A stretch of 64,000 nucleotides of DNA. It comes from Pseudomonadota bacterium. GTDB lineage: Bacteria; Desulfobacterota; Desulfobulbia; Desulfobulbales; SURF-16. The position numbers were made by a program. Numbering within the stretch: the first letter of the stretch is position 1; every line of letters starts with the position of its first letter. Below, one piece after another: positions 1-6,000 of this stretch. Where the stretch lies: the NCBI GenBank assembly GCA_018822545.1, contig JAHJKA010000071.1, positions 14,839-78,838 of the forward strand, read 5' to 3'.

Positions 1-3000
1 ACCAGGGTAAAGCTCCTGGACTTGATCGGTATCATTCTAGTTGGTGGCGGTCTCTGTGGGGTGCTCGGTCATCTTACCATCCGGATTGTAACCATCCCCT
101 TGCGCCGCAAAAAAGACAACTAAACTTAAAGATAAGAGGAGGTTTTGTGATGAGCGAAAAACTTATATATATCCACCCGGCACCGGTGCGAATCTGGCAC
201 TGGATCCATGCCGCAGGCATTGTGGCGCTGGTATTGACGGGCTTTCAAATCCGCTATGCCGAGATGCTGGGCATCATGCCCTTGCCAGATGCTATTACCC
301 TGCATAATTATGTAGGGTTTGTCGTGATAGCCGATTATTTCTTGTGGCTGAGTTATTATCTGGGAACAGGGAAGATTAAGATCTATTTTCCTGATCTGCG
401 CACCTTTGTGCCTGATGCGATCAGGCAGGCCAAGTATTACGGTTTTGGTATTTTTAAGGGTGAGCCAAATCCCCATGTGATGACTCCGGACAACAAATTT
501 AATGCTATGCAGCAAAAAGCCTATTTGGGGTTGATGTTCATGTTGCTTCCCGCCCAAATGATCTCGGGAGTCTTCTTGTGGCGGGTAAAGGGGTATGCCG
601 ATTATGTAAACCTCCTGGGCGGCATCAAGATCATTGATACCATCCATGTCATTCTCTTTTTCTTCTTTGCCTCATTCCTCATTGCCCATTGCTATTTGGC
701 CACATTGGGCCATACACCCTTTGCCCATTTCAAGGCCATGTTCACCGGCTATGAGGAGCATCATTAAAAAAGTAATAAAAGTAAAAAAATGTATAAAAAA
801 AAGAGGCGTTGACCAATCTTGGTCAACGCCTCTTTTTTTGATGAGCACTCAGTACCGCACAAAAACACATAGGGAGTGCACGGGGTCGGTTAGCCTTTTT
901 TACCCACGGGAAAATCAATCTGATATTTCTTCATCTTGCGCCATAGGGTGGTTTTTTCGATGCCGAGATGGCTGGCTGTCTTGCCTCTGTTGCCGTCAAA
1001 TTTCTGGAGGGTGGCCAAGATAATGCCGGCTTCGGCGTTGGAGAGAGGCGTGGCTGTTTCACCGGCCATGATTTTTAAGGGCTCCTCCTGCAGAGCTGCG
1101 GTGAGACCATCGGGCAGGCAGTCCACATCAATGATGCCGCCATGGCAGAGGACAAAGCAGTATTCGATGATGTTTTCAAGTTCCCTGATATTGCCTGGGA
1201 AATCATGGCGCATAAGAATGCTGACTACTTCCGGAGAGGCAGACTGGACATTTTTTTGCTTTAAGTTGTTGAATTTTTGAATAAAATGATCAACCAGTAG
1301 GGGGATGTCCTCCCTTCTTTCCGCCAAGGGGGGAAGATTAATCTTGACCACATTGAGCCTGAAGAAGAGATCTTCGCGAAAAATGCCCTCATTGGCAAGT
1401 TGGTGGAGGTTTTTGTTGGTGGCGGCGAGTACCCGGACATCGGCCTTGACGGTGGTATTTGAACCCAGGGGTTCGTATTCTTTTTCCTGGAGGACACGCA
1501 AGAGTTTGAGTTGCAGAGCCGGGGAAATGTCGCCAATCTCATCAAGAAAAATGGTGCCCTTTTCAGCCAAGGCAAAGCGACCTATTTTGTCGGTCTTTGC
1601 GCCGGTAAAAGCCCCTTTCTTATAGCCAAAAAGCTCTGACTCCAGGAGGGTGTCGGGCAGGGCTGCGCAGTTTAAGGCCACATACTTGCCCGCTCTCTCG
1701 GACAGGGTATGGATGGCCTTGGCAAAAAGCTCCTTGCCTGAACCGCTGGGGCCCTCAATAAGTACGGTGCTGTCGCTTTTGGCGATATTAGGCAGGATGG
1801 CAAAGATATTCTTAATCCTGTGATTCTTACTGATAATGTCCTGGAAGCTATATTTGTCGGTAATTTCCTTACGTAGAGACTCAAGGGCCGAGCAGTCACG
1901 AAAAGTCTCGACCCCGCCTAGAGCAATACCATCCTCGTCACGCAGAGCAGAGGTGGTGACATTAATGGGAATCTGCCGACCGTTCTTATTGATAATGGTG
2001 ACTTTGAGGTTGGAAGTCTCGTCGCCGCTGTCCATGGATTGTTTGAGAGCGCAGGATTCTTTGCAGATATTGGCCTTGAAGATGTCATAGCATTTCTTGC
2101 CGATGGCCTCTTTTCTCTTGAAGCCGGTGATATGCTCGGCGGCCAAGTTAAAGGAGGTGATGTACCAGTCTTTATCCACCGTAAAGGCACCGTCGCCGAT
2201 GGAGTTGAGAATACAGTCGCTTAAGGACAGCTCCTTGCGTAGGCTATCAATGGTGGAGGTGTCACGAAATGTTTCCACACCGCCGATAATCTCCCCCTGA
2301 TCATTACGCAGCACACAGGTGTTCACCCGGATGGGGACCTTGTCTCCTTCGACATCCTCGATGGTAACCTTGATGTCATGGCCATCCAGGCTTGTGTCCA
2401 TGGATTTTTTCAGGGCGCAGGAGGATTTGCAGATATCGGCCTTGAAAACCTCATAGCATTTCTTGCCAATGGCCTTGGATCTGTGGACGCCGGTGATGTC
2501 TTCAGCTGATTTGTTAAAGGAGGTGATGTTCCAATCCTTATCGACGGAAAAGGCGCCGTCGGCAATGGAGTCAAGGATACTGTCGCTGAGTGAAATATCA
2601 CGCCGGAGTTTTTCAAGGGTCGAGATGTCGCGGAAGGTTTCCACGCCGCCGATCACCTCGAATTTTTCGTTACGCAGGACTGAAGTCGTAACCATAATGG
2701 GAATAGGGTCGCCCTCAGCATCATGAATGGTGACCTTGAGGTTGGTAACATCACGGCCGGTTTCAATGGATTGCTTTAAGGCGCAAGCGGACGTGCAGAT
2801 ATCGGCCTTGAATACCTCGTAGCATTTTTTGCCGACGGCGTCACTGCGGTGGATGCCGGTTATCTCTTCCGCTGCTTTGTTAAAAGAGGTGATGAGCCAG
2901 TCATGGTCCACGGAAAAGGCACCATCGGCGATGGACTCAAGGATACTGGCGCTTAGATTGTTGTGGCATTGTTGAGCCGAGATTTCTGCTGTTTCGTGGA

Positions 3001-6000
3001 AGGTTTCCACGCCGCCGACAAAGTCTCCCTCACTATTAAAGAGCGCTGTGGAATAAGCGATTACAGGAAGCTCTAAGCCCAGGCCATTTTTCAGGGCGAT
3101 ATTGTGGCTGACAATTTTTTCGCCAAGACGCATGGCTTGCTTGAGAGCACAGGAAGATTGGCAGATATTGGTCTGAAAGATGTCATAGCATTTTTTCCCC
3201 ACCACATCCCAGCGTTTGTAACCGGTAATGCTTTCTGCCGCCCGGTTAAAGGAGGTGATGTTAAACCCTTTATCCACGGTAAAGGCGGGATCAGTAATAG
3301 AATTAAGAGAGGTGATGTTGAAAGTGGTCTCGGTCTTCTGGGGAATTGTATGATCCATAGGGGAGTTACCGGCAGAGAGTTGAGGGAGAAGCTGCTGTGC
3401 TCTTTAAGTAAAGACTGGTTGGCTGGACAGGCCAATGAAAACATGGCACCCGCAGCATCATTTATTTGCATTTTTGCAATAAAGATACTGCAAGGAATTG
3501 CATGAGCGCAAGTTTATGGAGCCGTGATCATTTGCATTAATGGATAAATATATGAAATTAAAGGACATAATAATTCAACACAAAGGGTGGCGCGTAATGT
3601 GCAGTGATGAGAGGTGTCTCAATCTTAAAAACAGGAGATTACTGGGTTTGCGTTGTAGGTAAACATGTTTGTCCAGGAGGTAAGGCTTATGAAAATAGTG
3701 ATTTCAAGTACAGGACCTAACATCAAGGCGGCGGTTGACCCTCTGTTCGGCAGGGCCGCTTATTTACTTGTCTATGATACGGACAAGAAAGAAGTGGTGG
3801 AAGTCATAGAAAATAGTGAAGGGCAGGATGCTGTCCAAGGCGCTGGTATCAGAGTGGCTGGCCTTCTGGCCCAAAAAGGATGCAAGGTCATCATAACAGG
3901 GAAGGTGGGTCCCAAGGCCATGGCGGTTGTGGAAAAGGCGGGTATGCAAGTGGTTTCCGATGCCGAGGGTACGGTGGAGGAGGTCCTTGATGCGTTTCGG
4001 GCCACCAACATGAAGCAGGCGCCGTTAGATCAAGGCTTGACTCAGGGCAGGGGGAAGACACCAGGTTGCCGGAGCAGAAACAGAGGGCAAGGGTTGGGTG
4101 GTGGAACTGGTATGGGGAAAGGGCATGGCCGCAGAGGTATGGGCCGAAGCCCTGGGAATTAAGGGGCGAAGAATATGCAGATAGCTGTTGCCAGTGGCAA
4201 GGGTGGCACGGGTAAGACCACGGTGTCCACCAGTCTGGCCTTGTGCGCCGGGAGCGCGGTACAGTTTCTTGACTGTGACGTGGAGGAGCCCAATGGTCAT
4301 ATCTTCCTCAAACCTGAGTTGACAGAGAGTATCAGGCACACGGTGACCATTCCTCGTATTTTGACCGATCACTGCACCTACTGCGGCAAGTGTCGGAATA
4401 TCTGCCGTTTTAACGCCATAACCATGTTTGGGCAGACCATTATATCCTTTACGGAACTCTGTCATTCCTGTCTCGGTTGTTTTCTGGTCTGCGAGGACAA
4501 TGCCATTGTTCGTGATAGTCGGGAAATCGGTGTTGTTGAAAGGGGGCAGGTTGGAGATATCGACTTTGTCCATGGCCGGATCAGGGTGGGTGAGCCCATG
4601 GCCGTTCCCTTGATCAAGGCAGTCAAAACAAAGGCCAGGAAGGAGAGCCTGGTCATCATTGACGCACCGCCCGGCACCTCGTGTCCTTTTGTGGAGTCGG
4701 TTTGTGATGCAGATTTTGTCCTCTTGGTCACCGAGCCGACCCCCTTTGGTCTCCATGATCTGAAGCTTACCGTGCAGGTGCTCAGAACTTTTGCCAAGCC
4801 GTGTGGGGTGCTTATTAACCGTGCTGATCTTGGCGATGAGCGGGTTGAAAGATGGTGCCAGGTGGAAAATATCCCGGTGATGATGAAGATCCCCTTTGAC
4901 CGCATTATTGCCGAAGGCTATGCCCGTGGCGAGACCTTGGTCGAAAGCCGACCTGCCCTGCGCAAACCGCTTGAAAATCTATTACAGGAGCTGGTGCAAT
5001 GAAAGAAATTGTCGTTTTAAGCGGCAAAGGCGGAACCGGCAAAACCACTCTGCTTGGCTCCCTGGCCTGTCTTGCTGAAAACAAAGTGCTGGTTGATTGC
5101 GATGTGGATGCGGCGGATCTTCATCTACTTCTTACCCCTGAACATCGCTCTGAAAATGAGTTCCGGTCCGGGGTCAAGGCCCGGGTGGTTGCCGACAAAT
5201 GTATAGGATGCGGGACGTGTCAGGAGCTCTGCCAGTTTGAGGCCATCGAAGTAGCTCAATGTGCTACAGTTGACACCATGGCCTGTGAGGGTTGTGGTGT
5301 CTGTGCCTATTTTTGTCCGGAACAGGCCATCCATCTCGACAAAAATCATTGCGGCACCTGGTATATCTCTGATACCAAGTATGGCCCCCTGGTCCATGCT
5401 CAGCTCTTTGCCGGCGAGGAAAACTCCGGGAAACTGGTGTCCTTTGTCAAAAGACAGGCGCGTCAGGTGGCCGAAGAAATCGGGGCCGAGCTGCTATTAG
5501 TGGATGGCGCGCCGGGCATCGGTTGTCCGGTGATAGCCTCGCTCTCCGGGACAGATATCATCGTGGCGGTGACCGAACCGACGCTGTCCGGCTGGCATGA
5601 TCTGGAACGGGTCCTGGATCTGGCCGATCATTTTCAGGTGGCGGCCTTTGTGTGTCTCAACAAGTGGGATCTTAACCCCCAGATGGCCGATGCACTTGCC
5701 AATCATTGCCGGAAAAGGGATGTGGAGATTTTAGGACGAATTCCCTTTGATCCGGCCGTGGTCACCGCGCAGCTAAAGGGGCAGCCTGTGGTGCTTAGTG
5801 ACTCGCTGGCTACTTCTGCAATTAAAGACATCTGGTCTGCATTGCAGGAGAAGGTAAATGATAATTGCTTGTCGCTTGCAGTTCCCAAGGTCACTTTTCC
5901 AGGTGTTTTATCGCGCAACGAAATGCGGGCTGGCTAAGGGGGTTTTCCTGCTCGACAAAAGAAAAAGGCGGTGGAGAATGTATCTCCACCGCCTTTTTTA

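Follow-up and report, generated by a model that had tools for sequence, protein, structure and literature searches.

Four OrpR-type cysteine-triad PAS domains in tandem in a predicted redox-sensing sigma-54 activator of the Desulfobulbales

What might a sigma-54 activator sense with three cysteines placed identically in each of four consecutive PAS domains? The question is raised by a 64,000-nucleotide stretch of a Pseudomonadota bacterium assembly (GCA_018822545.1, contig JAHJKA010000071.1, positions 14,839 to 78,838; GTDB order Desulfobulbales), hereafter the window, which encodes such a regulator at 890-3358. By homology to the redox regulator OrpR, we propose that it is probably a redox-sensing activator of the adjacent orp-like operon, carrying four OrpR-type cluster sites in series. 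The open reading frame (ORF) lies on the minus strand, a correction to the original prediction, and its 822-residue product, identical to protein P0001 of the public collection, was assigned from the ORF, Pfam and NCBIfam as a sigma-54 enhancer-binding protein with four PAS domains, an AAA+ domain and a helix-turn-helix (HTH) domain. The Pfam families PAS_9 (E 2.6e-51), PAS and PAS_4 each matched the protein in four stretches, followed by Sigma54_activat and HTH_8, which bears out the predicted series of four PAS repeats at the N terminus; NCBIfam yielded only sub-threshold matches, to named activators.

All four PAS domains carry the triad C-X8-C-X3-C with an acidic residue two positions after the first cysteine (Cys1), in the contexts CYD, CYE, CYE and CYD, giving the pattern C-Y-(D/E)-x6-C-x3-C. 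On the minus strand, PAS1 (residues 11-132) occupies 2963-3328 with its triad C57/C66/C70 encoded at 3149-3190; PAS2 (residues 133-254) occupies 2597-2962 with C179/C188/C192 at 2783-2824; PAS3 (residues 255-376) occupies 2231-2596 with C301/C310/C314 at 2417-2458; and PAS4 (residues 377-498), which abuts the AAA+ domain, occupies 1865-2230 with C423/C432/C436 at 2051-2092. The four motif strings originally quoted proved exact, starting at residues 54, 176, 298 and 420 with a period of exactly 122 residues, or 366 bp. The 12 triad cysteines proved invariant across 26 aligned orthologs (47-100% identity), as the prediction of a ligand set had called for, and the remaining N-terminal cysteines (131, 348, 382 and 489) were not conserved. 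Among the best 120 relatives, which together hold 370 triad domains and to which the counts on relatives below also refer, the acidic residue at +2 was present in 328 domains and a glycine three residues ahead of Cys1 in 369. The triad spacing is not absolutely rigid, since P0023, a 61%-identical ortholog from Thiovibrio sp. JS02, has C-X8-C-X4-C (ICQGDGC) in its PAS4 (residues ~420-440), with one residue inserted between the second and third cysteines (Cys2 and Cys3). The named sources among the homologs were Thermodesulfobacteriota, Desulfobulbaceae, Desulfurivibrio, Desulfurivibrionaceae and Thiovibrio.

The repeats are old, diverged duplications. PAS2 to PAS4 share 61-68% pairwise identity in protein and 66-71% in DNA, PAS1, the most divergent copy, is 39-45% identical to them in protein, and DNA identity across all four copies spans 55-71%. 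An assembly artefact or a recent duplication was ruled out because the copies are only this similar in DNA, and the same four domains recur in independent assemblies. Domain i best matches domain i among close orthologs (at least 70% identity), so the four-domain layout must be older than their divergence. Tandem Repeats Finder reported a period of 366 with a score of 911, covering the three more similar copies. The DNA block said to recur once per repeat was found without mismatch at 2063, 2429 and 2795, and the copy at 3161 departs from it at two letters, so that the recurrence stands and the positions 2430 and 3163 given for two of its copies were wrong; its count was matched in none of 100 shuffles. 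The ending GGVETFR(D/E), described for every repeat, needed no correction in repeats 2 to 4, and repeat 1 reads GGVETFHE.

The triad had been said to fit none of the familiar PAS cofactor sites, but a site of the same spacing was published in 2021 for the sigma-54 activator OrpR (DVU2106) of Desulfovibrio (Nitratidesulfovibrio) vulgaris Hildenborough, whose sensor is a single Fe-S PAS domain (Fievet et al. 2021, PMC8359166). The OrpR PAS domain has fully conserved C52, C61 and C65, that is C-X8-C-X3-C, and a conserved Asp/Glu at position 54; the three cysteines lie 5-8 Å apart in the published model (PMC8359166). Anaerobically purified OrpR is brown and silent in electron paramagnetic resonance (EPR), with bands at 320 and 410 nm, as expected of [4Fe-4S]2+; on mild oxidation it yields [3Fe-4S]1+, which gives an EPR signal, together with Fe3+, and O2 destroys the cluster (PMC8359166). 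Deletion of the PAS domain or a triple Cys-to-Ser change renders orp expression constitutive, and the PAS domain of OrpR is therefore held to exert negative control over the AAA+ domain at rising redox potential (PMC8359166). Of the possibilities first raised for the triad, a metal or Fe-S ligand set or a thiol switch, an Fe-S site is thus favoured by homology to OrpR only, and a thiol switch and a plain metal site have become less likely.

For comparison we used, in place of the D. vulgaris Hildenborough protein, OrpR-type genes from two loci fetched with the published OrpR binding site, L031 and L053. The scan of genome contigs with that site returned 120 loci, nearly all of them chance matches in unrelated GC-rich genomes, and these two were the useful ones. 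Locus L031 (Desulfovibrio sp. W18) encodes a 441-residue single-PAS protein with the OrpR site 134 bp upstream of its gene, and L053 (Nitratidesulfovibrio sp.) carries the published binding site and a copy cut off by the locus edge. The L031 protein has C52, E54, C61 and C65, and the L053 protein has the same C52, D/E54, C61 and C65 numbering. With the cysteines aligned, BLASTP matched PAS4 together with the AAA+ and HTH domains to the L031 protein at 49% identity (E 3e-150), PAS2 and PAS3 each at 43% (E 1e-32) and PAS1 at 39% (E 1e-22). The window regulator thus resembles OrpR in its triad with D/E at +2, in its PAS domains (39-43% identical to the OrpR-type PAS), and in its sigma-54 AAA+ and HTH domains. 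The AAA+ domain (Sigma54_activat, PF00158, E 4.7e-65; residues 508-673, 1340-1837 on the minus strand) contains the Walker A sequence GPSGSGKE and the only GAFTGA loop encoded in the window, whereas the OrpR-type proteins read GAFTDA. AAA_lid_14 follows, and the Fis-type DNA-binding domain HTH_8 (PF02954, E 1.3e-11) covers residues 773-812 (923-1042, minus strand).

The resemblance extends to the genes that face the regulator. Divergent to it on the plus strand lie a gene for a NifX-like protein of the Nitro_FeMo-Co family (PF02579, E 1.5e-23; 3689-4162) with a Gly/Arg-rich tail (GRGKTPGCRSRNRGQGLGGGTGMGKGHGRRGMGRSPGN), and, by Pfam, two orp-like genes for MinD/ParA-type ATPases: a P-loop ATPase with a 4Fe-4S ferredoxin insert (CbiA + Fer4; 4175-5002) and a second with two 4Fe-4S motifs (4999-5937). 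The NifX-like gene likely starts at the ATG at 3689, behind AGGAGG at 3675-3680, and not at the first ATG at 3665; its orthologs align from residue 1. Both ATPases have counterparts in genes beside OrpR in L053 (35% identity, E 4e-47, for the first; 47% identity, E 5e-67, for the second), which stand in the same order as in the window. Because the L053 OrpR faces homologs of both ATPase genes, we regard the window locus as orp-type, with a regulator divergent, as at OrpR, to MinD-like Fe-S ATPase genes behind a sigma-54 promoter. The window has a single adjacent three-gene operon, whereas OrpR has two divergent operons. A strong terminator at 5962-5998 closes the orp-like operon. Together with a hairpin at 796-839 it brackets the unit of regulator and operon; both are long, perfect, bidirectional and terminator-like, with stems of 16 bp and 20 bp, respectively, and flanking A/T runs. 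Just past the operon lies a tRNA-Leu(CAA) gene (6008-6094, minus strand), the sole Rfam match in the window.

The intergenic region holds the elements expected of sigma-54 control. The predicted -24/-12 promoter of the divergent operon, TGGCGC-GTAAT-GTGCA at 3588-3603 on the plus strand, is supported: nothing else in the window fits a relaxed -24/-12 pattern, and the element is conserved in orthologous loci; it is kept in L127 and L128, which retain the operon, and absent from L123, where other genes replace it. Pattern matching and conservation point to two candidate activator-binding palindromes, proposed as upstream activating sequences: TTGCATTTTTGCAA at 3466-3479, the one distal from the promoter, and, 32 bp from it, TTGCATGAGCGCAA at 3498-3511. 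These are the only matches in the window to TTGCA-N4-YGCAA, and both are conserved in all four orthologous loci (the window and three aligned to it), where the block CTTGCGCnnnTGCAAT is invariant. No site matching the IHF consensus was found in the region between regulator and operon, although OrpR works with IHF. An alignment of L123 (5690-6000) with the window (3359-3700) showed that the TTGC-N6-GCAA pair is kept there, one palindrome ~160 bp and the other ~127 bp upstream of the gene for the regulator. L123 has genes for a HAD hydrolase and a phosphoribosyltransferase in place of the orp-like operon and its sigma-54 promoter, yet retains the pair, possibly for autoregulation or as a remnant.

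Taken together with the published behaviour of OrpR, these features suggest how the system could work. At this orp-type locus, in the counterpart of OrpR, the sensory module would have expanded from one to four OrpR-type PAS domains. In each, the three cysteines and the Asp/Glu would sit in the canonical PAS cofactor pocket and, judged by homology, probably hold one [4Fe-4S] cluster, or four per monomer. Under reducing, anoxic conditions the clusters would be intact and the PAS array would leave the AAA+ domain free; the regulator, presumably bound to the two TTGC-N6-GCAA palindromes ~80-120 bp upstream of the -24/-12 promoter, would then activate sigma-54 transcription of the operon for the NifX-like protein and the two MinD/ferredoxin ATPases. 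A rising redox potential would oxidise or remove the clusters, change the PAS conformation and cause the array to repress the ATPase, as for OrpR, the signal probably running along inter-PAS linkers of fixed length, with exactly one heptad of difference from clade to clade. What the sequences show directly is homology, synteny and conservation, of the promoter and palindromes as well; a cluster in every domain, the logic of negative control and any benefit of four copies are inferred.

Several observations weigh against this reading. The case for cluster binding, in the four-PAS regulator as in its multi-PAS relatives, is one of homology, and for OrpR itself the fourth cluster ligand and the physiological oxidised state were left undetermined (PMC8359166). 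The orp-like operon does not stand beside every close ortholog, since L123, L121 and L129 have other neighbours. The palindromes of the window, TTGC-N6-GCAA, differ from the OrpR site GGGCGYRTTTTGCGCCC, so DNA-binding specificity would have diverged. Lastly, an AlphaFold2 model of the 500-residue four-PAS array (predicted template modelling score, pTM, 0.30) shows helix-break-helix linkers at low confidence and does not give the arrangement of the domains.

The single domain was modelled far better. AlphaFold2 predicted PAS4, from a 40-sequence alignment, with a predicted local distance difference test (pLDDT) score of 91.8 and a pTM of 0.83, in the canonical PAS order from A-beta to I-beta, a five-stranded antiparallel sheet and its flanking helices. 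In this model the short helix E-alpha begins with Cys1, the E-F loop contains Cys2, and Cys3, immediately ahead of F-alpha, is its N-cap. Of the internal parts of the model the E-F loop has the lowest confidence, and its pLDDT falls below 50 in PAS1 to PAS3 of the 500-residue model, as would be expected of a loop that a cofactor orders. The top fold matches were LOV domains, the flavin adenine dinucleotide (FAD)-binding PAS domain of NifL and the haem PAS domain of DosP, with template modelling scores of 0.7-0.8 at 12-26% identity. From the LOV motif GXNCRFLQ we take Cys1 of GKKCYDIF to be at the position of the flavin-reactive, photoactive LOV cysteine, pointing into the pocket. Similarly, a HMMER alignment to photoactive yellow protein (PYP) places Cys1 at PYP residue 62, and ungapped extrapolation past the aligned segment would put Cys2 and Cys3 at about PYP 71 and 75, around the chromophore-bearing Cys69. 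A sequence search of the PDB with the regulator gave only weak generic PAS matches, to PYP and phytochrome, and neither that search nor fold matching found the triad in a solved structure.

How far the stacking of such domains extends was apparent from the relatives. At loci counted as equivalent because an orp-like operon flanks the regulator and its far side usually holds a cytochrome b and multihaem cytochrome operon, the regulator has one triad-PAS domain in Nitratidesulfovibrio L053 (judged from the orp side only, the fetched 8-kb piece excluding the cytochrome side), three in L124 and L125 (700 residues) and four in the window, L127 and L128. Writing T for a PAS domain with the triad and o for one without it, 45 of the relatives have the architecture oTTT, 27 TTTT, 20 TTT, 8 oToT and 7 ooTTT, with other architectures in the remaining 13. 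Successive triads are separated by 115 residues (n=111), 122 residues (n=93) or 116 or 117 residues (n=29), and the last triad lies 113 residues before Walker A in 116 of the 120 proteins. Aligned units place the seven-residue gap between the 115 and 122 classes wholly in the linker, from GGVETFRD to the next N-terminal helix. Heptad-register signalling along helical linkers is known for PAS-kinase linkers, and the fixed lengths and the one-heptad difference would fit signal travel along helical, probably coiled-coil, linkers here as well.

A set of 1.84 billion representative proteins, searched exhaustively with a profile, gave 419 matches at E <= 1e-30; of the best 150 of these, 97 had at least one triad, the maximum being five. 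The multi-triad proteins scanned were mostly soluble methyl-accepting chemotaxis proteins, often with HAMP_2, and included one GAF protein (P0246); arrays of three to five triad-PAS domains occur in the chemotaxis proteins P0125, P0127, P0131, P0143, P0150, P0167, P0195, P0243 and P0255, which points to redox taxis based on this Fe-S PAS module. The triad motif itself was already known. Proteins that stack two to five such domains are common among these bacteria, and no description of tandem OrpR-type Fe-S PAS domains was found in the literature searched, including the OrpR paper (PMC8359166); a large survey of PAS domains mentions, among those with Fe-S clusters, the NreB type only (PMC10468136). 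More tentatively, OrpR-type Fe-S PAS domains in series of two to five, joined by heptad-register linkers and feeding a sigma-54 ATPase or a chemoreceptor signalling domain, might represent a class of multi-cluster redox sensors that has gone unrecognised and would be widespread among Desulfobulbales and related bacteria; the clusters would provide either staggered potentials (a graded "redox ruler") or a cooperative, sharp threshold. The extra PAS domains may serve graded or cooperative sensing, stabilisation or the sensing of another signal such as sulfide. The suggestion in the original prediction that quadruplication could bring a cooperative or graded response stays an idea.

Another account would make PAS4, next to the AAA+ domain, alone the working redox switch; PAS1 to PAS3 would keep their clusters or cysteines for folding, dimerisation or stability, or serve as a buffer, with no cooperative or graded response. 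A single PAS domain suffices for redox control by OrpR (PMC8359166), and the last triad keeps its constant distance to Walker A, whereas anything from 0 to 4 domains may stand upstream. In some relatives upstream PAS domains have lost the triad (oTTT, oToT and ooTTT), and PAS1 is the copy that has diverged most. We nevertheless judge this account unlikely: the 12 cysteines, those of the PAS1 triad included, are invariant in orthologs down to 47% identity; the match of domain i to domain i in orthologs at least 70% identical argues that each PAS position is kept under selection; and all the inter-domain linker lengths are fixed, which would be needless if the upstream domains were passive.

Less probable still is that the triad holds another kind of cluster or senses another signal, for example a three-cysteine [2Fe-2S] cluster whose exchangeable sulfur ligand reports sulfide or polysulfide, as in NreB. 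The PAS domain of NreB binds [4Fe-4S] in Staphylococcus carnosus and, through three cysteines, [2Fe-2S] in Bacillus licheniformis, where a labile fourth sulfur ligand accompanies a response to sulfide (PMC13478379). Such a signal would be relevant to sulfur-cycling Desulfobulbales, and the named relatives do include Desulfobulbaceae, Desulfurivibrio, Desulfurivibrionaceae and Thiovibrio; moreover, the type of the OrpR cluster was deduced from ultraviolet-visible spectra and EPR alone, with the fourth ligand not identified (PMC8359166). NreB and the window regulator are alike in using a cytoplasmic PAS domain, with an Fe-S cluster held by pocket cysteines in NreB, three of them in the Bacillus protein. 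However, the NreB motif, C-X2-C-X11-C(-X2-C), is not C-X8-C-X3-C, there is no detectable specific sequence relationship, NreB has a single PAS domain and a histidine-kinase output, and the homology of the triad domains is to OrpR and not to NreB. The conserved D/E at +2 could, in addition, serve as a fourth ligand from the protein.

That the triad is instead a Zn site or a thiol/disulfide switch with no Fe-S cluster is very improbable. Zn could be bound by three cysteines with an acidic residue, Zn-binding PAS domains are known in the cytoplasm (WalK), and PAS redox regulators with cysteine switches occur among the fold matches (PpsR), but the OrpR domain, a direct homolog, is brown, has absorption bands at 320 and 410 nm and gives a [3Fe-4S]1+ EPR signal on mild oxidation (PMC8359166), and the triad and its acidic residue are conserved as a set across the 370 domains.

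The preferred reading, four OrpR-type cluster sites in series, also sets the regulator apart from other sensors of similar build. PpsR (three PAS domains), NifL (an FAD PAS and a second PAS), DosP, LOV-PAS kinases and FixL share with it tandem PAS domains and helical linkers and supplied the best fold matches, but their cofactors are flavin, haem or none, no member has the cysteine triad, and they join unlike kinds of PAS domain, whereas the window regulator repeats one Fe-S-type domain. In its proposed logic, an N-terminal sensor that represses the AAA+ domain until the signal arrives, it resembles enhancer-binding proteins of the NorR and DmpR type, a comparison already drawn for OrpR (PMC8359166); the sensors differ, NorR having a GAF domain with mononuclear iron and DmpR a V4R/XylR-N domain. 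From OrpR it differs in copy number, with four PAS domains at an exact 122-residue period against one. OrpR, with one such domain, is so far the sole enhancer-binding protein reported to sense redox through a PAS Fe-S cluster, and the present locus and its relatives show the OrpR-type domain routinely stacked two to five times, in activators and in soluble chemoreceptors, with strictly conserved spacing and every cysteine retained. If each domain does bind one cluster, up to 24 clusters would be present in a hexamer of the activator, which would lend itself naturally to studying, in strict anaerobes, how the number of cofactors affects the threshold of a redox response and its steepness. For annotation, the rule G-[KR]-x-C-x-[DE]-[VI]-F-x3-[IVL]-C-x3-C within a PAS domain could be applied to many proteins named "PAS domain S-box protein".

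The surroundings of the regulator vary between orthologous loci. On its other side, convergent with it, the window has a cytochrome b561-type gene (147-767, plus strand), which in L121, L123, L124, L127 and L128 is preceded by a multihaem cytochrome c gene and two small genes of unknown function; this cytochrome neighbourhood is kept more consistently than the orp-like operon. The NifX-like gene is absent from the closest relative, L127, whose regulator is 92% identical, and present in L128, L124 and L122. In L122 (3533-5219), which has a 78%-identical ortholog, dsbB, dsbA and a gene of the AhpC/thioredoxin fold are inserted between the regulator and the genes for a flavodoxin and the NifX-like protein, so that oxidative-stress and thiol-redox genes adjoin the regulator. 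Paralogs sit beside other redox modules, and one of them, elsewhere, faces a Fer4_11/cytochrome c7/NrfD set. Beyond the cytochrome operon of L123, at 12115-12696 on the minus strand, lies a gene for a 193-residue protein in which one triad-PAS domain (GQLCHEVFRSSLCAQDC) is fused directly to HTH_8, with no AAA+ domain between them; it could act as an ATPase-less OrpR-like repressor or as a competitor for the same sites. Similar PAS + HTH_8 genes, cut by the locus edge, occupy the same place in L127 (9928-10469) and L128 (9912-10472), and the equivalent place would fall to the left of the window start.

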